Below the pieces are notes generated by a model. That model had not been told where the DNA came from, ran no database searches, and worked only from the letters and a program-made list of their open reading frames with translations. Shown piece after piece: positions 3,001 to 57,166 of a DNA stretch of 64,000 nt. The position numbers and the translations under genes are program-made. The first letter of the stretch is position 1. Each line of letters begins with the position of its first letter. Source of the DNA: a virus (taxonomy: Duplodnaviria; Caudoviricetes); IMG/VR virus record IMGVR_UViG_3300028591_000014, positions 38,957 through 102,956 of that record, one strand, 5' to 3'.

Positions 3001-6000
3001 TGGCTTATGCGTCATTATATGGTCAATAAACGCTTGTCGCAAAAACATATGACGTATAAACGGAACGTGTTGTGAAGACGTATTAATATCGTTTACAGTA
3101 AGAGTTGTGTATTTAGTATTTCTAAGATCAGCGTCTTTATACTTCTCTGCAGCCTCTTTTGAATAATCGGTTCTAAGGTTCTGACCTGGGGATAATACTC
3201 CACCAAGACGCTTGATTTTGTCTGCGTGAGCGTCTCTTATATCATGAACTGCAATAGTATACGGCTTATCTTCAATATTAAACTGAACAAGTGTATTTTC
3301 TTTTTGGTTTTTCCATTTATAAAAAGCAGGATCTCCAGAAAATATCTTCTCGAACTCTATGATGGACGTCATCGTATTTATTGTATTATTTGCCATAGCA
3401 GATAATACAAAATTTTCAGCAGAATATCGATCTTGATATACATCAACCATAGTCGACATGACTCCTCCTTTTTGGAACATATCTTTGTACGAGTTGAGAA
3501 CGTCTGCAGGAATTGCTATAGATTCATAAAAGGTTTGCCCATTTACCTCGTATTTATCCAATATTTTCAACGCACCGTCTTTAGACATCTCTTCCATATC
3601 AGCGAATGTCATGCGTATCAAATTTTCGTTGATCGATTCGTATAACAGTTCTGGGTTTTCAATAGAGTATTCTATAGTCTTTAAATACTCTCGAACCGCT
3701 TCAAATCCATCACGATTGTCGCCGTACTTAGAAGCTTCGCCTGTAGCTTCTTCTATCTTCTGTTTTTCATATAGATATTCCAGATACTAATTTAGATTTA
3801 ATTTGTTTTTACCAACAGCTGTTTGTAAAACATCATACATGTATCTAAATTTTCCACCATTTCCAGAAAAATCCATACGCTTCTGTCCAGAATCCGTAGT
3901 ATAAATATTTCCGTGATAATTATCTATTGCGTTAGCTTCTCCGTTCACAATGGCCGCAATATTATCTTTATTGTAATACTACAGCAAAGAATTATATTCA
4001 TCGATGAAATAGTTAAAGAATCTCTTCAGAGTAGCATCAGAAAATCTTAGGCCTCTGTGTTTTACTTGACCCTCGCTGTCTAATACGTCACCATACGTAA
4101 TAAGATCATGACTTAACTTAAGACGCTTCATTCTAAGCGTATAGTATGTTTTCTTATCTGCCATAGTAGGAAGAACCAACATATCACGCATAGTCATATT
4201 CATCTTTATTATGAAGTCTTCTAACGGAGTTATGCCAAAATAATCCTTTCCTACACGCTTCTTGCTATCTTTAAGTCCGACAAGAGAAACAAGTTCAATA
4301 TTATCATCGTTGGTATATTCTCCGGTTTCGTGCAGTTCGCTAAGCAGGTTTAGCACTATACTGTTGGCAGCATAAGGAGACTCCATCATTCTATCGACGA
4401 GATTATCTTCGTTTATAGATAATCTAAGAGCAAGATCTGATACAGTATTGTTCTGACAAATAGGATATATTCTAGAACCATCAGGGGCCGTCATACTAAA
4501 TTCAGACGACGCTGGGTGTGTTTGATGATGCGCTACAGCCAAATCAGAAATCTGAGGAAGAGCCGCATTATTTTTTTCATACCCAGTATATATACTACTA
4601 AGGGGTTTTGTTTTACCACTATTTCCAATAGGCAATTCGGATTTACCAACATTTTGGTTTATATAGTTCACAAAACCACCAATAGAGCCCTCTCCTGCAA
4701 CTAAAACTGCATTCTTAAGGTTCTTGTATTTACTTTCATAATCTTGAGCATACTCAGACATATTTGATATATATTGCTCTATCACATCCATGTCTGCAGG
4801 TATTGCCATTTTGTTAAGCAGTCTTACCCACTCTCTAGAAAGTTTTATATATGCCTATTTGTATTCATTTGTAGATGGAGTTTGGTTGGCCAACAATTTA
4901 ATAGAATCATAATCGTTTTTTATAGACAGAGCAAAATTAGAATCTATTACACCATTTTTAACAAACCCAGAAGTAACTAACACCTAACCCCATGTCCTAG
5001 GAAGATTTCGTCTAGCTCTAATAGTTGTATCGTGTTGTAATATCCAATTTCGTACACGGTCAGCGACTATATCATTCTATTCGATACCAAGATCTTCAAG
5101 TTGGTCATTTATCATATCTTCCATTTCGTCGTCCATCCATGACTACACAACAGGATCTCTTAATTCAAAAAACGCTATCTTAGATTTTTGACTAGCAATT
5201 GTTCCGAATATCTACGTTTGCAATTCTACGTCATCTTCTTCGATAGACTGGAGTTTAGTTAAAAGTGAATAAAAGAATGGATCTGTTTCAGCTTCTTTTT
5301 GTACTCTGCCGAGAATAGAATCTTTATCATAACCACTCTCACCTGTTTTGTCGTATGAGCGAACGTCATGAAGTTTATCTACGATTTTATACCAGGCTTC
5401 ATCGAATGATACATATTTAGGACAGTTTAATATATCAAATCCATCCTACACAATAGTACGTTCACCGTTGTCGTCGTATTCGAATCTTGTCTTAACTAAC
5501 TAACTTAGGAATAGTTTCGCTTTGTATCCAACATTATCTTTTTTAGAAACCTTTAGATCTTCTATTTCATATGCGGCTATTTCGTCAATTCGTTCTTTTT
5601 GATCCGGATTATTCGCAATCTCTTCTTTAGTAAGTCTATATTTTTTATTCTTTCTAAATCCAAGTTCAATACCGTATCTTCCGAATACATCTTTTATTAT
5701 AGCATTGAATATACCGACATTATCAATAATATCCTACAAAACCAACGCCTGTTTCCCAGTAGCCTCGTCACGCATTTCTTTCAAGTTGTATAATAAAGCT
5801 TTATACTTTTCAGACGTAAGTTTCTTATTTATATTACCAGTTCGTAAGAATCCAAACTGATCCAACATCATATGTGCAAGAGCTTCTCCAACTTCATAAA
5901 ACTCTTGATACGAACTAATACCTTGTAACTTATCCAACTTATCTTGACGAACTCCATCAACATACCACTCGGCCTTGTTAATTCCTTTTGGGAATCTTTT

Positions 6001-26381: not shown

Positions 26382-27068
26382 TCATTCTTGTGTTTGAACT
26401 TCGTTGGTGATAGTTTGATAACGCTGATCAGCCTGATTCTCTATATACATCTGAGCAGCTATTTTAAGTATCTCCAACCAAGTATTATCTTTGAAGTCCG
26501 TATATTCTCTAAACGGATCCTCATTTGTTATTTCATCGGGCACTCTTAAGTAACCCAACGTATATTTATTTATCTTATAGTTCTTGTCTGTTAACAGACG
26601 AAAGCCATCCTTAGTTCTTACACGTAAGGGACGAGCTCTATGAAAACGATAGTGAAAGTCTGTAAGTTTGTTATTCACACGGTACATAAAACTGTCAGCA
26701 GTACACTCAAATACACAAGTATCCATCAGATGTCCACCTTTCTTGTCTGATATAACAACATCTTCGTTGAGTACGAACATCATATCTTCTGGATATAGAC
26801 ATTCGTATTCATCGTAAGATTCGTGGTCTCTGCGTGTAAACTTGGTCATAGATACTTCTTTGAAAAGATCTATGAGGTCTCGTGTACGCTTTTCATTTTG
26901 CTCGTATGAAGTTCTCTTCGGGGTATTGCCATTGAAGCGATCCTTAGTAAACTTCACTACTGCCTAGTTAATCCAGTATAACGAATCGTCTGTAACAGGT
27001 TTCTAGATCTGGTCATTGAGCTTGTTTATCTCTAACTCAAAGCCAGCAATCAAATCAATTCCTCTCAT
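26382..27068 (-). CDS. Tail ring protein (228 aa, 2 TAG)
   Basis: MRGIDLIAGFELEINKLND...YWIN*AVVKFTK...YEQNEKRTRDL...YLRVP...EILKIAAQMYIEN...R. Confidence 0.8.
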
Positions 27069-27070
27069 AA

Positions 27071-27802
27071 TTACTCGTCTTCGTTATCTTTATTGCTCTT
27101 CTGTTGCTTCTGTTGAGCTTCTGCTAACTATCTCTTCCTTGCCTCAGCACCAGCTACGTATTGTACATATAAATCTACAGCACCTGTAACAAGATCATCA
27201 AACGCATCCATAGATAATTCACAAGGAGTGCTTGTCATCAAGTCCATATATCTAGGAATCCTGTAGTATGTTATATCAACATCTGTAGGATCAGTATATC
27301 TATCACAAGTAAGCTGAGCCTTATTATCCTTTATTTGGAATATAGGGTTTCGTATAATACGAAAGCTGTCATACGGACGATTGTTCAATTCCAACTGTAC
27401 AGACTGTGGAAGGTACACATTCGTAACAGATCCGCCATTCAGCTTATCTTCACTAGTCTTATATTGGTACATCTTATTAACGTTTGTTGCGCTAGATAAG
27501 TATAAACCAAAGTTTGATGGAAGGTTCATGAAATAACGGTTGTTTGTACCACCAGATAACTGCACATTTGCTGTTGTGATCAATCCACTTAATATAGCTT
27601 CTATGTATGCAGACGGTTTAGACTGTACAGGTATACCATCGAGAGCTTTATATGTCTCATGTACAAGCTTATCCTGATATTGATTTAAATATGAATAGAT
27701 AGTCTCTGTGTCAAGCTTAGCAACAATCTCTGTCTCTGGTATCATTGTCTGAACTCTGCGTTCAAACTCTATACCTAACTGTCGTGTTTGTTCTATTGTC
27801 AT
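27071..27802 (-). CDS. Tail ring protein (243 aa, 1 TAG)
   Basis: LGIEFERR...IYSYLNQYQ...YYRIP...CEL...DDLVTGAVDLY; TAA at 27071. Confidence 0.75.
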
Positions 27803-27945
27803 GCTTCAAGCCCTCTCATATTAACTTTTGAATTAAGTCTTGGAGATTCAACATTCTCAAGTGCGAATGCTATTGCAAGACTTATAAGCTCTTCGGCCAT
27901 AGAATCTGACAGCTCAAACTCTTCGGTTTCAGAAAATTTATACAT
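27799..27945 (-). CDS. C-terminal fragment of a split ring protein (48 aa)
   Basis: MYKFSETEEFELSDSMAEELISLAIAFALENVESPRLNSKVNMRGLEA* matches the C-terminal helix pattern of the two neighbouring ring paralogues. Its ATG overlaps the upstream stop and its TGA overlaps the next ATG. Confidence 0.65.
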   Translation of the reverse strand: MYKFSETEEFELSDSMAEELISLAIAFALENVESPRLNSKVNMRGLEA

Positions 27946-29071
27946 ACTGATTTATTGCTGATCTATTTGAAAGGCTCCACCAATCTCTTCCGTCACATAC
28001 CCACATATCAAATGCATTCTGGAAATACATCTAATCCGCTCCATATGAATCTACCTCATAGTTTCCAGAAAATGTTCTACTACTACCTCTGCTTGTAGCT
28101 GAATATGGAGCAGCAAGCATGTATTGACGATTGATCATCGGGAACAAACATGGTAGAGTGTCTAGAGCATCAGTATAATTCTCATCACGCTCAAATGCAA
28201 TACCTTCTGCATAATATGAATCCGTAGGATCATATGCATAGAACGTAGAAGCGATCGCACCTGTATGTATCACAATAAACAAAAGACCTGCCTAAGGATG
28301 TGGAAAATATATTCTCGAACCAACGTAATTGACTCTAGAGGCAATCGTATTTGGTGCTATCTGTACAATAACATTGTTTATGCTGATAGCAGGGAGTTTG
28401 TCTGCGCTTATTGTAGCTGATTCAGACGAAGCGTTTATAGCTGCTATAACTCCAGTTTTATCAACTTTACCTGACTGCAATGCTGTTATATTTGTTGCAT
28501 TAGTACCAATCGCAGTTACATCAGCTGGAGTAACTACAGGGTTGCTATTTGAATCAATAAGACCGAGCGTTTGAAGTTGTGCCGTAATATCAATAACAGA
28601 CTGACTGTTATTAGGATCAACGGTTATAGACAGCTTAGATGAATCTATAGTCAGATTCTCCTCTGAAGAATTAATAGCAGCTATTATACCAGTCTTATCT
28701 ACCTTACCTGATTGAAGCGATGCTACGTTAGAAGTATTTGTACGTATAGCATCTACATCAACAGATGTGACTATAGGATTGCCGTCATTATCAAGGAGAT
28801 AAAGAGTCTTTAACTGCTCTATTAAAGAAGGCTGTCCTTCTTCCTCGTCTTCTAAACCACTCTCTCTTCCTTCTGCAGGATATTGCAAAGCTTCAATATC
28901 TGTAAGAATGCTATCTATTTGGGTCCATACACTGTACAAACTAGCAGATTCGCTGTCTTGGTGATTACCAATAACCTCATTTAACTTAGTAACTACGCTA
29001 TTGAGATCTTCAGCAGTAAGAGTTGTGTTTGGAATAAATTGAATGTTTGATTGACTTATTTTTGTATCCAT
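27938..29071 (-). CDS. Fibre-like protein with ~80-aa tandem repeat, inserted within the ring gene (377 aa, 2 TAG)
   Basis: Fragments 28292 and 28031 are co-frame; TAA at 27938. N-terminal TLTAEDLNSVVTKLNE anchor-like motif. Two copies of LQSGKVDKTG(I/V)IAAIN.S.E...I...KL. Confidence 0.7.
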
Positions 29072-29072
29072 A

Positions 29073-29942
29073 TTATCTTATTTTGTCATTACTATTTAAA
29101 TGAGACTTATTCAGAACAAAATCCTCAGATTGTGGTGTTGGATTGTCATCATGTTGTTCTGGTTGATCGTCCGTAGGAGTATCCTGACTATCGGAAACCC
29201 ACACCAAACTTTCTACAAAGCTCTTAGGCTTCTTTATATATACGAGATGTGCCGAATTGCCCTACTGTACTTCTGGTTTGTTTATCGGGTCATATACTAC
29301 AAAACAAGAGTCGCTTTCTATATAACATACTGGATTTTTTACCCACGGCATGTTGTACGGAGTGACAAAAAACTTTTCAGCAACTGTATGCGACACTAGC
29401 TTGACAGGTACAAGACGTATCTGCTTATTGTCGTACGGTTGATTAGTAGCTTGTGTAGATGGTTCCGAAGATGTTGTAGATCCAATATAGTCATTATATA
29501 CATCTTGGAATCTAACCCAATCGTCTTGATCCTCTTGTTCAAACTGTATATCTGTAGGACTATATACTGCCGGCTCTGGAACACGATTGTCTGTAGTAGA
29601 TTCGGTTTCTTTAGTCCTATAGTTCAAGTACGCCTGAACATAATAATTAAAGTCAAGAGGCAACTTAAACCTTGAAATGTTGGCTATAGGAAAATGACCA
29701 TCTCCTTCAAACACAACATCCCCGTGCTTAACCAGCTATTGTAAATCTGCTACAGCCTTTACGTCAGTTTCAAAAGGAGCTCTTCTAACATTATTCCCTG
29801 TTAATTTCTGAGATATTAGCGCATTATACGCTTTATCTAGAATAGTTGCAACTTCGTATGGTGTTAACGATGGATATGACGAAGTAACGTTTGCTTTGTC
29901 ATATTCTATCATGAACTTAGTATATAATTGGTTATGCGTCAT
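29073..29942 (-). CDS. Ring protein, N-terminal part (289 aa, 2 TAG), lacking the conserved C-terminal helix
   Basis: MTHNQLYTKFMIEYDK...SYPSLTPYEVATILDKA...PFETDVKAVADL...HLVYIKKP, then an acidic low-complexity tail and TAA at 29073. Confidence 0.75.
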
Positions 29943-29965: not shown

Positions 29966-30718
29966 TCACTTATTCTTTGTTTCGTTTATAATTGCGAGCT
30001 TCAGGTCCTGGTTCTTCTTACTATCAAGATAAGCAATAGCATCCTGCAGACTATCTGCGAACATGTCTGTTCCGTAGAAGTAATGTGTCTTATCCTTGCG
30101 GATAACACCTTTGGCAATAGCCTCCTCAAGAATAAACTCTGTATCCTTAGATGCATTATTTACCCACTTATCAAAGAACTTCTTAGGCTGCTTGTCTACA
30201 AGATTAAACAGTGTAGATTCAACAAGCTCGTTTGACATACGATCTGCTGACATTCCAAACAAACGCAGGCACTTGCGCATCTGCTCAAGAGACATACCAT
30301 CAAATGCTTTAATAGCATCACGACGAAGTTTATTCTGCTTATTCTGCTCTATAGCTTCTGCTTCACGATTGATCAACAGATAATCCTTACCTGCATCAAG
30401 CTTATCAAGCGATGTAGCAACACGCTTATGATTACTAAGGAACTTAATAATCATTGCCTGGCGAGGAATAGAATCATCCAAGAGCAGAGTACGCGAACCA
30501 ATTTTTACACAAAACGTAGTCCAGAAGTCTGACGTCTTAGCAAGATGTCCTTCTTCATAACCTAAAGCTTTTTCAAAATATCTCTCATCTTCTGGGGTGA
30601 GACCCGTATATATCGACCCGGAACGCGTGAAGTACGGTGCAATATAATCAAAGCAACTCTTATACTTTACAAGACCGATCCAGGGATTCTTCTTTTTAAT
30701 TTTTAATTCAACTACCAT
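29966..30718 (-). CDS. Conserved crAss-like protein downstream of MCP (250 aa, no TAG)
   Basis: Intact ORF with YTGLTPEDERYFEKALG and EEAIAKGVIRK...YYG...AIAYL..KKNQ pattern; conserved position after MCP. Confidence 0.7.
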   Translation of the reverse strand: MVVELKIKKKNPWIGLVKYKSCFDYIAPYFTRSGSIYTGLTPEDERYFEKALGYEEGHLAKTSDFWTTFCVKIGSRTLLLDDSIPRQAMIIKFLSNHKRVATSLDKLDAGKDYLLINREAEAIEQNKQNKLRRDAIKAFDGMSLEQMRKCLRLFGMSADRMSNELVESTLFNLVDKQPKKFFDKWVNNASKDTEFILEEAIAKGVIRKDKTHYFYGTDMFADSLQDAIAYLDSKKNQDLKLAIINETKNK

Positions 30719-30800: not shown

Positions 30801-31954
30801 TCACGCACCAACTGAGGGGATACCGTTATTGGTCAGCTCGCTATCCTCTGCATCGCAGTACAGGATACCGCAAGACAGCGGGTTACGAACCATGATACCA
30901 ACCTCACCAAGGAAGTGAACCTGGTAACCATCGCGGCTGTTAGAACGCAGTGTATTGATGCTGTTAGCATATCCGTTAGGAGCAACAGAACCACCAGTAT
31001 ACCACTGTACGAACTCACGACCCTTGCGGCAAACCTTAACGATATTTGCCTGACCATCAGCGTTGCTAATGTCAAGGAACAGGAACGTGTACGACATCAG
31101 TGGCTTACCAGTCAGCGGGTGCAGCTGACGGAACAGCTCCATGTTGTCGAACATCGGGCAACGCTTCATCGACAGCTCGATACCGTTCGTCATCTTATAC
31201 GTGGTGAACTGACCACCGAGAGTCAGGTTCTGACCAGAACCAGTGACAAATACGTTGTCACACAGGTGGAAGCTAGCAACCTTCTCCTTCAGGATGCGAT
31301 CGAACTCGCGAATACCCATCTCACCAGTCAGAGCAACGAACTTACGCTCGTTGGTACCCAGGATGTTGTAGCACAGATCGAACAGGTAATCCTCGAACAG
31401 CTCAGCCGTCAGCGTTGTGTAGTAACGGATGTTAGCAGGAGAAATCTGCTCAAGCAGACCACTCATCGTGGGAACGGGGCGACCGTTTGTACCCTTGTTA
31501 ATGTATGTACCATCACTCAGACGGTTGCTCTTAGAGAACAGGAGAGCGGTCTCCTCTCTCTTCTTCCACTCACGGAGAGCCTTCCAGTACTGATAATCAG
31601 CCCACAGATAAGATGACTTACCGGTCTCAGGATCCTTCAGAGCGATAGCCAGAACGGTGCTATAAGCATCACCGGTGATATCGTAGCTCAAACGCAGATT
31701 CTGCAGATGGTTACGCATCTTAAACGGAGTCTGATAGTTGATGATATCAGCCTCATCGCTGTACTCCTCGTAAGCAGAGCCGATACGGCTTACCTGACGA
31801 CCAGGCATCAGCAGCTCTCCAGGAATATAAGCAGCCTGAGAACCATCAATAACGTAACACTCGTAAACCCAAGCGCTACCATCCTGATAGGGCAGACCAG
31901 TCGTACGAACCTGGAAATGGAAGTCATCAAAGCTGAGCACAGCTCCGGGACCGA
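30801..31954 (-). CDS. Major capsid protein, exon 2
   Basis: Splicing gives ...EERW-F-GPGAVLSFDD..., total ~508 aa. Contains MRNHLQNLRLSYDITGDA, PVPTMSGLLEQI, LTGEMGIREFD and HPLTGKPLMSY. Confidence 0.9.
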
Positions 31955-32791
31955 CAGTCCCATGTTCCATACAAGGCGTTAGCTTGTATGCGTTCGTGCG
32001 TGCTCAACACGAACTGCTTTATATCTCTATAAAGATCAGACTATATCTTCATCCACTTGGGATGTTCCGCATTTCCCCTCACTTGAGGGTACGTCATTAC
32101 AGACTAGTCGTTGAACCTTCAAATCTTCGGAGTCGATACGAAGTCCTTTGAATCTACCCGTTTTGATATATGCGCCCGTATTTACATACTTCTAAACAAG
32201 CGTCATAAAATTGCGTTTAGATCCTCCAAACTACTTCAACACATTTTTAAAACCTAGAATAGTAAATGACTTTCCGTTGAACACGTTTGTAAAAGTATAT
32301 GCTTTTTGTATATCATATCTTCCACGATGGCCGTGCAATTTACTCCACTCGTCATTCTATTCTTGTGTAACCCATTCTAGGTTTTCAAACCAATTGTTTT
32401 TGACGTTAAAGTCTTTGTGATTAACCTCTTCTTTATTGTAAGGATTGTCAATAAATGTCTCCGCTACTAAACGATGGACCCGATATGTCCTTCTGTAATT
32501 ATTTCTAGATAATGTTACTAAAGGATAACCATCTTTATCACAACCTTTGTTTAAATATCTATTGGATATGTACGAATACACCTTGCCGTCATTTGTGATA
32601 CTATATCTATCTTCCCATCCTTTAATTGGTTTGCTTACGATTTGCTTGGCTGCTGATTGTCCATTTTCATTATTCATAATTCTATGTTTTTAATTGTTAC
32701 TCTACGGTATAAAAACTTTTAGGATTTTCCAGCAATTAACGGAATTTATTATCCGCGCAGTTGCCTGCACGTGTGGCTCAGCCCAGAGCTA
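31955..32791 (-). mobile_element. Group I self-splicing intron (837 nt) in the MCP gene
   Basis: 5' splice site after U with P1 GTGGT/GCCAC (U.G wobble); IGS GGGCTGA pairs the 3' exon TCGGTCC (P10); P AATTGCTGGAAA, Q AATCAGCAG, R TTCAACGACTA, S AAGATATAGTC; terminal G; splicing restores the reading frame. Confidence 0.92.
32036..32677 (-). CDS. Intron-encoded NUMOD4/HNH homing endonuclease (213 aa, 3 TAG)
   Basis: KPIKGWEDRYSITNDGKVYS (NUMOD4-like), VHRLVAETFI.NP..KEEVNHKDFNVKNN..ENLEWVTQE*N; first non-TAG stop is TGA at 32036. Confidence 0.85.
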
Positions 32792-33164
32792 ACCACCTCT
32801 CCTCAAGAGCGAGGTAGATAGGCGTATTGTTCAGACCTGGAGTGATTCCATTCTCAATAGAGCTAGAAGTAACCTCCTGACCATTCCACTTAGCCCAGCG
32901 AATGTTTACAGCGTGATCTGCATCGATCTGCACAGCCCACTCAAACTCGCGGTTCTCAATAATCATCGTCTTGCCCAGACCACCAGTAATCAGGTCGATC
33001 GTAGTAGAAACACCGTCGTCCTTAGTACCGAACACCAGTGAAAGCAGACCAGAAACCTCATGAGGCTTGGTGAGCAGTGCGTTAGAAATCATATTCTCAT
33101 CTACCAGGTCACTGAAACGACGTCCGCGATACAGCTGGAGATTGTTAAGTAAAGTATTATTCAT
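32792..33164 (-). CDS. Major capsid protein, exon 1
   Basis: MNNTLLNNLQLYRGRRFSDLVDENMISNALL...IENREFEW...PIYLALEERW; same codon style as exon 2. Confidence 0.9.
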
Positions 33165-37046: not shown

Positions 37047-39529
37047 TTTCCAGATACAGTTTTATTACGTAACGCATATTGACCTTTAACCTTTTCACGT
37101 TCAAGAGCCGCATCGTCCTTCTGTTTCTGAAGAGCCATCTCATGCTTCATCTTCTCACGTTCAAGCTGTATCTTCTTATCTTCGATTTCTTTTTTCTATC
37201 TCTACTCGTATCTCTTTGTATACTGTTCAGCTGACATCTTTTGTTGTTCAAGAGCTTGCTTACCTATTTCTATCGGATCAGGAATTTGATTATTGTTAGC
37301 ATCCTTTTCTTCAGTACCACGATATGCACTAATCTCAGCTACAGCTATCTTAGTCTGATTATCAGCATCAATCTTATAACGCTCAAGCTCCATCTTAGCC
37401 TCTTCAAGCATAAGCTCCTGCTGACGCTGTTCGTTCTGCATCTGTTGAAGCTGCATAGCCTGCTCTTGTTCAGCCTGCTGTTGCTGCTCTATCTGCTGCT
37501 GTTGACGATCTTGCATCTCCTTAAGCTTTTGCTTAATGATATTGAAGTTATCATTCGTAAGTACTTCAGCGGCTTCCAATAGGCTGGCTCCATTCTGCAT
37601 AGCCGGCTGGATAAGCTGCTGTAACTTCTGAATGTTCTCCATATCTTTAGAAGTATCGCTTACGAATACATCCATATCCTCATAATAGAACTTATCAGCA
37701 ATGTCTAAGTATGCACGCTCTCCATTATCGAAGACATAACTTAACTTCTTCTTACCAGTCTCCGCCCAAGCACCTTTGGCTGTATTTAACAGCATATTAA
37801 GAGCATGACGCTTACACTGATTATGAACCCAGAACAAAGGCTCTGTAATGTGTGAAGACTGTACAACAGACCGTTCCACATTACCTACAAGCTCACTAGA
37901 ACTAATAGCACCTTCACGCTGTTCTGTAATACCAGATATAGTACCGGCAAGCTGCTCAATCTTATCCATCAACTGAATATACTCAGCTATTACATTCGAC
38001 ATAGTAAGATCGAGTGCCGTAATCTAATTAAACGTAGCTGGTTTACCACCTTCACGTCCAGGAACGTTCCACCCCTCTTCGTATGGATTAATAAAGTTAA
38101 CACCCACAGAAGATAGGTAATGCATCCAACGCTCTGGAGTAATGTTCATAGACTTGGGTATCTGAGTAATATCCATATTTACTACCTTACCTTTATCTCT
38201 AGCAATAGCTAGTTCAAGGCGATACCACAGTACAATGTACATATACTGAAGAGGTTTAAGTATACTTACAAGAGATCTGGGTTTGCTATTTGTATTACTG
38301 TATATAGCACCTGTATACGGAAGTTTCTGTGAATTAGGATTGTCTATAGATACATGCTGATATTCTACAGGCTGTATACCAAAGTATAAATCAGAGCCAG
38401 CTCTATATCCTTCCCACACCTCTACAATCCAGTCTGGTGTAACATCTAACTCTAGACCAGTCTTTTTGTATGTCTCATCCACAATGTCTATCTGTGGGGT
38501 TCCTGTCTCGTCCATATAAGTGACATAGAATATCTTCTTAAAGGACTTCCAGCAACAATGCCATACATTTATATTATGCCTTGTTTTCTAATCAAATAGA
38601 GGATTATCGTAGATATGCATCTGTATTCCGCTAAAGTTATCTACTTTATCCTTGTCTCCCATATCGTTAGAAGGTCTACCAGTAAGCATCTCTTGTAGCT
38701 TATTTAAGTCTTTTTCTGTAAGCTTATCAAAGTATCTATCATATACTGTAGTCCAAGGCATTCTCATACGTCTACAACACCAAGAAGCGTCTTCTATAAA
38801 CTCTAAGTCCGGTGATTGATCGTATGCAAAGTATAAAGGATTAACACGTTCCAAATAAGGTTCTTCATTCAACACCCCCACGTAGTAAATCTCTGTACCA
38901 CTTATGAGGGCATCTTTCCAACCTTTTATAAATTCATTGTCCAAACTTAGCTTTTCGCGTAAGTAGGTCAATGTATGATACGCCGTGTTTTCTACAACAT
39001 CTTTGTAATCCTTATCCATATATTTAGCTATAGCTGCAGGTGGCATTATCTCTCCATTCTGGAGCTACTGCTAAAACTATGCTGCTTCCTCTTCTCCCAT
39101 CTGAGCCGTAATAGATGCCATAAGATACTGCATAAGCATCTCTTTCTCTTTGTCCATAAGCTCTGAAGCAGCTTCTTGTGATGTTCTTACTACCCTGAAA
39201 TTCATTGGCCTCTTTGTCTCTTCACCTATAAGGAGGTCTACCTTAGGCCTTATTATATTAAAATCCTGCGGAGTAGCTGGGAATCCATCTTCAACTTTAA
39301 ACGGGTTTGTTATACGCTTAAAGTCTTTCTCATCGAATATAGAATTATAAAGATTATAGTAGGTTTGTAATTCTCCAAACCGCGTTTTACTCATGCCGCC
39401 GGAGACAACGTTACCTTCCCCAATAATGTAGTCAACACAATCATGCTACCACTGCTCTGTCTTTTTGCTTAATGGGAGCTTCTGTTGAGGGAAGTTTGAA
39501 TTATATAAATTATCTTCTACTCTAACCAT
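37043..39529 (-). CDS. Portal protein (~828 aa)
   Basis: Four fragments co-frame. FPQQKLP..KK, FNIIRPKVDLLIGEETKRP, PRSLVSILKPLQYMY, ISGITEQREGAIS; follows terminase. Confidence 0.9.
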
Positions 39530-56152: not shown

Positions 56153-57166
56153 TTAGAGATTACTTGGGGTTTGTGTCCAGTGAAGTGATGGATTTTGAGA
56201 CTTGATGTAATTTACAGCTACGATAATATCTCTCCAGCTGCAAGAAAGAATCTCTTCTGCGGTATGCCCAGATGGAGCTACCCATTCATTTGTAGAATCA
56301 TCCCATTTACATTCTGTACCATCGTCTACTACAGGAATGTCTTTAAAGTCGTCATTCTGTGTAATATAATCAACCTTTTTGATTTCCGAATTGAGGTCAT
56401 TAGGATCCTCGCGAATTGGCTCCGGACCTACACGTTTCACAGCATAGATTCTACCATCTTCTTTAAACCTGTATTCATCGGTAAAGATGGATGTCTTCTC
56501 GGTGTTAAATGTGCCAAACTCAGCACCATCACCACCGTCATGCTCAAACTTGATCTTGTTTTCGTTTCCCTTGTTGTCAGCACCTTTAGGCTGAAGAGCA
56601 ATGCCTCCATCAGCTTCACAACGAAGATCAATGGCCTGAGCACGTACTTTTAAATATCCGCGTGTATTTTTAGCAGAGTTTACAGTAATATTCATGACAG
56701 TCGGATCGTCATATAATGCGGTAGATGTATCATCTCCATTTTCATCTTTTTCCTTTGTCTTATTCTTATCTTTAGTAGTAAGAACAATATTTGCTGTATT
56801 TACTTGAAGCTTTACAGGATTGTCATTTCCGTCATGAATTTTTACACTAACTTCTGTAGGATCTTCTCTGTGATGGGAGCAAATTACCACATCATCACCA
56901 GGCTTGATTTGCAAATCGCTAATAGGTTCGATGTTGATCTTACCACCCTTCATCTGTCCATTTTTCTCATACTGATCTGAAAGGGTGGTTTCTATAGTAA
57001 GGTTGTGTTTATCCGCAGAATCAAATACGATATGAGGATCTGACCCACCTATTCCGTTATTAATAGCATCTACGGCAGCATCCACATCTTGTGCAAGACT
57101 ATTCCACTCTGAGGCGTTAAGCTGATCGCCATTGTGTTTCTCAGAATATGTAAAATTCTTTGTCAT
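56153..57166 (-). CDS. Fibre-like structural protein (337 aa, no TAG)
   Basis: N-terminal KHNGDQLNASEWNSL...VDAIN anchor-like motif followed by beta-rich body. Confidence 0.6.
   Translation of the reverse strand: MTKNFTYSEKHNGDQLNASEWNSLAQDVDAAVDAINNGIGGSDPHIVFDSADKHNLTIETTLSDQYEKNGQMKGGKINIEPISDLQIKPGDDVVICSHHREDPTEVSVKIHDGNDNPVKLQVNTANIVLTTKDKNKTKEKDENGDDTSTALYDDPTVMNITVNSAKNTRGYLKVRAQAIDLRCEADGGIALQPKGADNKGNENKIKFEHDGGDGAEFGTFNTEKTSIFTDEYRFKEDGRIYAVKRVGPEPIREDPNDLNSEIKKVDYITQNDDFKDIPVVDDGTECKWDDSTNEWVAPSGHTAEEILSCSWRDIIVAVNYIKSQNPSLHWTQTPSNL

Follow-up and report, generated by a model that had tools for sequence, protein, structure and literature searches.

How a ring protein of the tail barrel can be encoded without the C-terminal helix of its own family is the question raised by a locus on the minus strand of a 102,956-bp crAss-like phage genome, of which a stretch of 64,000 nucleotides (nt) was analysed (the window; positions 38,957 to 102,956 of IMG/VR record IMGVR_UViG_3300028591_000014). 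The body of this protein, here termed ring protein A (P0001), retains the N-terminal helices, the beta-sandwich and the YIKKP motif of the family; it reads LVYIKKPKSFVESL and then passes into an acidic and proline-rich tail that ends at a TAA stop codon (29073-29075), so that the C-terminal helix is missing. A fibre-like gene (P0002) follows, and beyond it a mini-ORF (P0003), an open reading frame (ORF) of 48 amino acids (aa), encodes the C-terminal segment of the ring protein (Table 1). We consider it likely that ring protein A is the product of a gene in pieces and that three separate chains are at work, the helix being contributed in trans and the fibre docking on the ring.

The missing helix and its contiguous counterparts

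The split of the ring gene, with the helix as a separate 48-aa ORF, had been put forward in a preliminary description of the locus, together with the expectation that related phages would carry a contiguous gene. The coordinates given there hold, and the expectation is borne out in the nearest deposited relatives, Buhlduvirus cr272_1 and cr273_1 and Burzaovirus cr124_1 (all Suoliviridae), in which the first ring paralogue is a single gene whose product (294, 790 and 242 aa, respectively) includes the helix in the same chain. The contiguous C-termini follow the pattern ...YIKxP..FV.., a short variable stretch, and FE(L/C)..(T/S)MAEELISLA..FALENVES.RL..K.N.RGLEA, and P0003 aligns with the C-terminus of the proteins from cr272_1 (...AYKFECNETMAEELISLAVMFALENVESQRLGTKLNMRGLEA) and cr124_1 (...TKFELSDSMAEELINLAII...). 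A HMMER search with P0003 of 1.8 billion representative proteins placed all 148 matches at the extreme C-terminus of the matching protein, and approximately 25 of these are stand-alone short proteins of at most 100 aa. P0001 and P0003 are homologous, in other words, to adjoining parts of one protein in relatives. Among deposited phage genomes the helix was found only in contiguous forms (8 records) and the split form in none, and literature searches returned no published description of a split crAss ring protein.

Assignment of the locus to the ring-protein family draws on several lines of evidence. P0001 itself has no Pfam match at E<=0.1, and dozens of its homologues, at 44-62% identity, have a precomputed match to PF25710; ring protein C (P0005) passes the same family directly, with 35.7 bits for a cut-off of 27. 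Given this CrAss_Ring_3_4 match and the presence of the R1, R2 and muzzle genes in the window, P0001, P0004 and P0005 can be taken as paralogues of the R3/R4/R5 type, as described for phicrAss001 (PMC10172136). The phicrAss001 ring proteins escaped PDB sequence searches made with P0001, P0005 and a profile (A3) and were reached by fold comparison alone. Matching the contiguous ring-A profile to P0004 and P0005 with hhalign gave weak results (E 0.04 and 4e-4, respectively), and the paralogy of ring protein A with these two consequently rests on fold, Pfam and context.

The fold was modelled on a contiguous orthologue (P0123, 236 aa, 46-sequence alignment) that is 53% identical to P0001 (alignment A2). 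The model, with a mean predicted local distance difference test score (pLDDT) of 82.8, has three helices (residues 3-18, 28-48 and 61-70) before a beta-sandwich that spans 71-183, and its C-terminal helix, at 202-220, is predicted with confidence; this is the two-domain fold of alpha-helices and beta-sandwich of the ring proteins in PDB entry 7QOJ. Its best Foldseek matches are the phicrAss001 barrel chains 7qoj_D/E/F (E ~1e-10, template modelling score 0.66-0.70), and VIA-align superposes it on 7qoj_E with a Z of 16.1 and a root mean square deviation of 3.1 A over 217 residues (model residues 1-235), the C-terminal helix included; podovirus adaptor proteins are more distant structural matches (Z 5-10, VIA-align). 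By this model the mini-ORF piece is an integral helix of the ring fold, of which complementation in trans would be the natural consequence. We therefore retain, of the earlier proposal that a split protein reassembles from two chains, the split itself, for which conservation, selection and fold all speak, and we infer the reassembly. On the basis of homology and of the orthologue model, the 48-residue chain would bind the body in trans and complete its helical domain, so that the dodecameric ring could still assemble. The body, the fibre and the 48-residue protein appear to be translated separately from three adjacent ORFs, coupled through their abutting stop and start codons.

Authenticity, recurrence and selection

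The preliminary description had named indels or assembly errors as a possible cause of the split, and these can be discarded. The same trio of ORFs, joined by the same logic, is present in three assemblies made independently from other runs (L004, L005 and L006), at 81-95% identity to the window in the fibre and 96-100% in the flanking ring genes. Contigs from other samples (X2-X5) agree with this picture. The junction between fibre and mini-ORF (junction 2) is crossed without indels or other differences by X2 (DNA, 27821-27971) and X3 (RNA library, 27855-28077), and that between body and fibre (junction 1) is crossed without differences by X3 (29052-29213) and by X4, a DNA contig from another study (29003-29388, no gaps). 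The whole stretch is covered by the 3.8-kb contig X5, whose indels are mostly codon-multiple or paired and compensating, with one 1-nt deletion at 29022, in the region coding for the fibre N-terminus, that has no partner among the indels listed. X5 also presents a joint of low likeness from 27894 to 29214, at which 1319 nt are skipped; splicing was considered as its cause and rejected, a co-occurring relative with a contiguous gene being the most likely source instead.

The arrangement is also widespread. Of 1037 homologues of P0001, many of them with Pfam PF25710, the best 120 were classed, and these include 68 contiguous forms and 41 helix-less bodies ending in the motif described below. At least 13 distinct split loci were found. 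Their bodies range from 224 to 927 aa, their inserts from 2 to 5470 nt and their mini-ORFs from 48 to 54 aa, and at all 13 the pieces start at an ATG and end at a stop codon of their own. Most closely resembling the window in layout are L007-L009, L020 and L025 (body of 224-289 aa, fibre gene of 262-635 aa, mini-ORF of 48-54 aa). In L010 and L011 the body and lectin-like arms form one ORF (685 or 927 aa) that is followed by the fibre gene and the mini-ORF; in L012 and L092 a fusion of body and arm (723/734 aa) is followed directly by the mini-ORF; and in L029 the mini-ORF comes after 5.5 kb containing genes of 635 and 1163 aa. The architecture is real and recurrent in many diverged phages, and since the three-ORF arrangement recurs in many independent assemblies, the split layout, judged from these sequences, is far beyond chance. 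A tree of ring protein B groups the split forms in two or more clades that are well apart, and a minimum of three changes of state is needed to account for its well-supported branches, although this is a quick tree, the count of origins is provisional and recombination may blur it.

This variety bears directly on recoding, which the preliminary description had offered as an alternative to reassembly. Programmed +1 frameshifts, or bypass, at both junctions would in that case produce one body-fibre-helix chain of 714 residues. Both junctions of the window are indeed, arithmetically, exact +1 frame steps, and in-frame insertions are known in the family, in the 790-aa protein of cr273_1 and in 16 long forms that end in the helix. 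Across relatives, however, the pieces occur in all three relative frames (0, +1 and +2 for the mini-ORF with respect to the body), and they are joined through ATGA overlaps, ATGTATAA, overlaps of 8 or 17 nt or gaps of 2-33 nt, or are separated by up to 5470 nt with two large genes. In the window a TAA shuts the incoming frame two codons ahead of each ATG, which leaves stretches of 2-4 codons (AGA TAA T; TAT GTA TAA) without a slippery or re-pairing sequence or a shift-prone stop context, and junction 1 is not the same in L006 (ATA TAA T). Moreover, the insertion of cr273_1 lies in another loop, and the far-apart ends of a fibre do not fit a loop insertion. Recoding appears very unlikely on these grounds, and we set it aside.

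Selection provides a further test of the mini-ORF. Across the 13 distinct mini-ORFs the mean proportions of synonymous (pS) and non-synonymous (pN) differences are 0.535 and 0.124, corresponding to a ratio of non-synonymous to synonymous rates (dN/dS) of ~0.14, with no such signal in the other two frames, and 25 of the 48 alignment columns are invariant. The closest clade, with 2 synonymous and 0 non-synonymous substitutions, offers too few changes for such a test, and for this reason the diverged loci were used. The mini-ORF is kept by purifying selection acting on its own frame, as the preliminary description had anticipated for a functional fragment, and the body is likewise conserved, with an added conserved motif. 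These data also speak to the notion of an artefact or of decay, according to which indels of sequencing or assembly, or a newly broken gene, would have left a non-functional 48-aa remnant. Short ORFs beside frame changes are a common signature of error, and the mini-ORF has accumulated only 2 substitutions in the closest clade of the window; on the other side stand the four independent assemblies and the contigs of further samples that concur at both junctions, the dN/dS and invariant columns of the 13 diverged mini-ORFs, and an own ATG and stop codon in every lineage. We give this explanation almost no credence.

Splicing deserves consideration because the capsid gene of the same genome harbors a group I intron with an HNH endonuclease and because introns and inteins are reported to be dense in this phage group (PMC10136315). 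The fibre gene could be imagined to lie in a self-splicing intron, or the pieces to be joined by a split intein. Nevertheless, a permissive Rfam scan (E<=1) that did find the capsid intron (E 2.3e-8) is empty at 27.8-29.9 kb, and the insert contains no nuclease, no intein-sized flanks and no Pfam family of inteins or nucleases, in agreement with the preliminary description, which had seen neither intron core nor nuclease there. In addition, at both junctions RNA-library contigs and DNA are colinear, and the boundaries of the insert are ordinary start and stop codons that differ between relatives. RNA or protein splicing is hence extremely improbable as the link between the pieces, and separate translation of three chains is the reading followed below.

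The fibre gene and its putative anchor

In the product of the inserted gene a conserved N-terminus is succeeded by a helical stretch, by a pair of ~50-aa repeats (NP.VT..DV.AI.TN..N...LQSGKVDKTG.IAAIN) and, at the C-terminal end, by a variable domain. Scans of Pfam and PHROG with the body, the fibre and the mini-ORF returned no usable family for any of the three pieces, and no relatives of the fibre were found by an IMG/VR scan with the fibre alignment or by tblastn in deposited phage genomes. The genes inserted at split loci share little beyond their N-terminus and a fibre-type middle motif. The N-terminus conforms to ...F..G..LTA..LN.I..KI.., in which F12, L18 and L23 do not vary among 14 fibres whose identity is otherwise ~20%. 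An N-terminus of the same type (..NGDQLNASEWNSLAQDVDAAVDAIN..) also opens a 337-aa ORF elsewhere in the window (56153-57166), which may make similar use of such a socket.

A counterpart to this conserved N-terminus was identified at the end of the body. Helix-less bodies that precede a fibre gene end, with the exception of L079/L080, in a hypervariable linker rich in Pro, Asp and Glu followed by a conserved terminal peptide, with the consensus F-x-L-(D/N)-x-S-x-L-(D/N)-x-x-D-(K/R)-I-(Q/R). Behind the hypervariable linker, F275, L277, S280 and L282 are invariant in 42 of 42 split-type bodies. Peptide and fibre occur together at 11 of the 13 split loci, as well as at a 14th (L027) in which the contig ends first; the two split loci without the standard motif are L012/L092, which has no fibre, and L079/L080 (tail ...LGEATLGEIILQ), which has one. 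In L010 a non-coding relic of the peptide coding sequence (...QLNSTDKIQ*; 5059-5094) lies directly upstream of the fibre ATG and downstream of the 685-aa ORF of body and arm, which itself holds an internal copy of the motif. This relic looks like the footprint of a cassette insertion and suggests that peptide and fibre may move as one. The linker and the conserved candidate docking peptide at the end of the body, as read from these alignments, are the new element of this analysis.

Three fibre N-termini (residues 1-100) were modelled together with three body tails (last 35 residues), alongside three controls. The complex scored 0.63 (runs of 0.68, 0.12 and 0.63), compared with 0.00 for the best control, and at least 38% of contacts are shared between the runs. 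The score mark is reached by 58 of 80 solved complexes and by 2 of 110 mismatched pairs, counts that apply only roughly here owing to the own alignments and the three-plus-three design. We know of no solved complex of this peptide-fibre kind, and a score owed to a structure in the training set is for that reason unlikely. In the best run one tail (residues 20-35, that is, 274-289 of P0001) touches residues 12-23 of all three fibre copies, and the residues predicted to form the interface are precisely those that are invariant in the two partners. The score is the confidence of a model and not a measurement; taken as such, it indicates that the fibre is probably tethered to the ring by a non-covalent route, through the docking peptide at the new C-terminus of the body. 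The preliminary description had envisaged a tether created by fusion through +1 shifts, and it is the tether, rather than the fusion, that the results favor.

Comparison of four near-identical genomes adds a further element. Their nucleotide identity falls to 0.58-0.84 only at 27981-28340 and 28881-29312, stretches that correspond to the C-terminal domain of the fibre and to the body linker and tail together with the fibre N-terminus, and it lies at 0.96-1.00 in the flanks, mini-ORF included. The linker of the body, in which length and sequence vary even in close relatives, has there an identity of 0.64-0.84, as compared with at least 0.96 in its flanks. As a pattern of sequence divergence this is the typical signature of a host-range module.

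It might still be argued that the split is real and the helix acts in trans, and that the tail peptide is no fibre anchor. The peptide could have originated as a duplication, now a relic, of the F-E-L-S-D-S segment in front of the helix, or it could bind another partner (a neighbouring ring, a hub or a chaperone, for example), with the fibre attached elsewhere, for instance to a hub of the THA/THB type. The resemblance of the tail motif F-x-L-D/N-x-S to the F-E-L-S-D-S start of the mini-protein is in keeping with this possibility, as are the docking of phicrAss001 fibres on a hub through their N-terminal 26 residues (PMC10172136) and the modest confidence of the complex model. Against it can be set the co-occurrence of motif and fibre at 11 of 13 distinct split loci, the L010 relic, in which the motif travels with the fibre gene, the joint divergence of tail and fibre N-terminus between near-identical genomes and the controlled model, which puts the invariant residues of both partners in contact. 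We judge this alternative to be unlikely, albeit one to be taken seriously, and prefer the tail peptide as the fibre anchor.

Several results weigh against the three-chain reading with a docked fibre. The RNA-library contigs may stem from phage DNA, so that they are no proof of transcription. The pLDDT of the partners in the complex model is low (37-43), and one of its three runs reached the 0.12 given above. The AlphaFold2 monomer model of the fibre is unusable (pLDDT 35.8), and the name fibre rests as a result on sequence character, on the repeats and on the trimer-like N-terminus. Finally, ARAGORN detected no suppressor transfer RNA (tRNA) in either the window or the complete 102,956-bp genome, and the reading of TAG as Gln is thereby based on TAG to CAA/CAG substitutions between relatives.

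With these reservations, the following sequence of events can be proposed. Loss of the helix would free the C-terminus of the body as a flexible proline-rich and acidic tether ending in the conserved peptide of ~16 residues, which would plug into the N-terminal trimer of the fibre, as the model supports, and would hang extra fibres on one ring of the barrel. One tail per trimer, and hence up to twelve fibres, is what the model by itself would suggest. The interval between body and mini-ORF would then act as an exchange slot for host-binding modules; its content across relatives comprises different fibres, a fibre with genes of tailspike size, or lectin-like arms fused to the body. More tentatively, and with confidence that stops a little short of even, we postulate that the ring-A gene is a plug-and-socket slot in which a portable cassette (peptide, fibre and sometimes spike or lectin genes) is swapped by recombination, providing a second, hub-independent attachment for up to twelve fibre trimers, and that the splitting off of the helix is the evolutionary price of this slot, having arisen more than once.

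Genome setting and comparison with known systems

Table 1. Features of the ring-protein A locus and its surroundings (window coordinates; aa counts with TAG read as Gln).
Feature	Position	Strand	Details
Ring protein A body (P0001)	29073..29942	-	289 aa; codons 69 and 227 are TAG
Body linker	29124..29210	-	acidic/Pro-rich, variable; ~residues 245-273
Putative docking peptide	29076..29123	-	DFVLNKSHLNSNDKIR; conserved, C-terminal; residues 274-289 of P0001
Junction 1	29069..29075	-	TAATATG: body TAA, one base, fibre ATG (29071-29069)
Fibre-like gene (P0002)	27938..29071	-	377 aa; TAG at codons 260 and 347; stop TAA 27940-27938
Fibre residues 12-23	29003..29038	-	FIPNTTLTAEDL; predicted socket for the docking peptide; F12, L18, L23 invariant
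Junction 2	27938..27945	-	ATGTATAA: mini-ORF ATG (27945-27943) overlaps last fibre codons and stop, 8 nt
Mini-ORF (P0003)	27799..27945	-	48 aa, FELSDSMAEELISLAIAFALENVESPRLNSKVNMRGLEA; ring C-terminal segment; stop overlaps ring B ATG (ATGA)
Ring protein B (P0004)	27071..27802	-	next paralogue, 243 aa, intact, own C-terminal helix; weak profile match over YYRIP...CELSMDAFDDLVTGAVD
Ring protein C (P0005)	26382..27068	-	228 aa; Pfam CrAss_Ring_3_4, PF25710, E 6.9e-9
Major capsid gene	30801-33164	-	two exons, 33164..32778 and 31970..30801, group I intron between
Capsid group I intron	32017-32247	-	Rfam RF00028, E 2.3e-8; second, weaker match 32559-32817
Endonuclease ORF inside capsid intron	32677..32036	-	HNH/NUMOD4-type; TAG-recoded

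The order of genes on the minus strand is capsid, a 250-aa gene and rings A, B and C, so that the ring genes are tandem paralogues downstream of the major capsid gene, and the same module contains the tail-barrel genes R1 (PF24228, E 8e-98), R2 (PF25702, E 1e-47) and muzzle (PF25731, E 8e-153) at 17.4-23.2 kb. The 250-aa gene (29966-30718) is labelled 'RecA protein' in cr272_1, cr273_1 and cr124_1, a label that looks doubtful in view of its position in a virion module and of the lack of a Pfam match here. The capsid gene is similarly interrupted in L007 and L012, and intact in L008, L009 and L011.

The late genes of this genome lie on the minus strand and are dense in in-frame TAG codons, and TAG is exchanged for CAA/CAG in close relatives at several positions, such as codon 227 of P0001 and codon 260 of P0002. 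Matching contigs come from gut metagenomes of sheep, goat and bovine. From its sequence, the phage is classed here as a Suoliviridae-like crAss-like phage of the ruminant gut that reads TAG as Gln. ARAGORN finds only two tRNA genes in the whole genome (Met-CAT and Arg-TCT), despite its dense late-gene TAG.

Comparison with phicrAss001 reveals both likeness and difference. Its ring proteins R3 (gp35) and R4/R5 (gp34) in PDB 7QOJ have the same fold as the contiguous orthologue, and in both phages tandem paralogues follow the capsid gene. In phicrAss001 and in all the deposited relatives found, however, the ring protein is a single chain, whereas here the helix is separate and the body carries linker and peptide; and the fibres of phicrAss001 sit on the THA/THB collar (Bayfield et al. 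2023, PMC10172136), whereas here they are proposed to sit on the ring protein's own tail.

A second way of decorating the same ring is found in cr273_1 (YP_010113570, 790 aa) and in homologues with PF18998, where the same gene appears to serve the same purpose, that of presenting surface modules on the barrel ring. In cr273_1 (L001:1498-3870) ~496 aa of immunoglobulin-like repeats are inserted in an earlier loop, after ...VVTASL, and the chain then returns to the fold in frame, so that no split is needed there. The ring proteins P0139-P0151 likewise have large in-frame insertions in an earlier loop; those of P0146-P0151 match PF18998, and the insertion reaches 1133 aa in P0141. The 16 long forms keep the C-terminal helix at the end of the same chain. 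To judge from their sequences, in-frame loop insertion and the split are two different solutions to decorating one ring. In a similar vein, the tail adaptors of T7 (gp11), SU10, N4 and GP4 belong to the same fold class and form dodecameric rings below the portal, and those of the T7 type help fibre docking, but they are single chains with neither a helix supplied in trans nor a tethered docking peptide.

Genes in pieces are known from other phages, namely nrdA of Aeromonas phage Aeh1, which is split by the homing-endonuclease gene mobE, and the topoisomerase genes 39/60 of T4. As at the ring-A locus, a conserved protein is there made as two separately translated fragments around an inserted gene and is thought to reassemble non-covalently. 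In those cases, however, enzymes are interrupted by selfish endonuclease genes, whereas the insert described here is a virion fibre and an apparent partner of the protein that it interrupts. The split of ring protein A differs further in that the piece split off is one helix, in that it occurs in at least two clades and in that the gap appears to be used for the exchange of host-binding modules.

Crassviruses are among the most abundant gut viruses, few have been cultured, and their fibre attachment and changes of host are little understood. If the arrangement proposed here is correct, it would constitute a new mode of fibre docking for the order, in which a ring protein gives its own C-terminus as the anchor; it would also be a rare instance of an essential virion fold encoded as a gene in pieces without a selfish element, and a natural case of split-protein complementation by a single helix, in the form of a 48-residue micro-protein. 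For annotation, it means that the 48-aa gene is likely to be missed or mislabelled by gene callers and the body to be called 'truncated'. The pair of peptide and socket would be a compact and testable interaction, and the slot would mark an exchange site of host-range modules, useful for reading host specificity from metagenomes.

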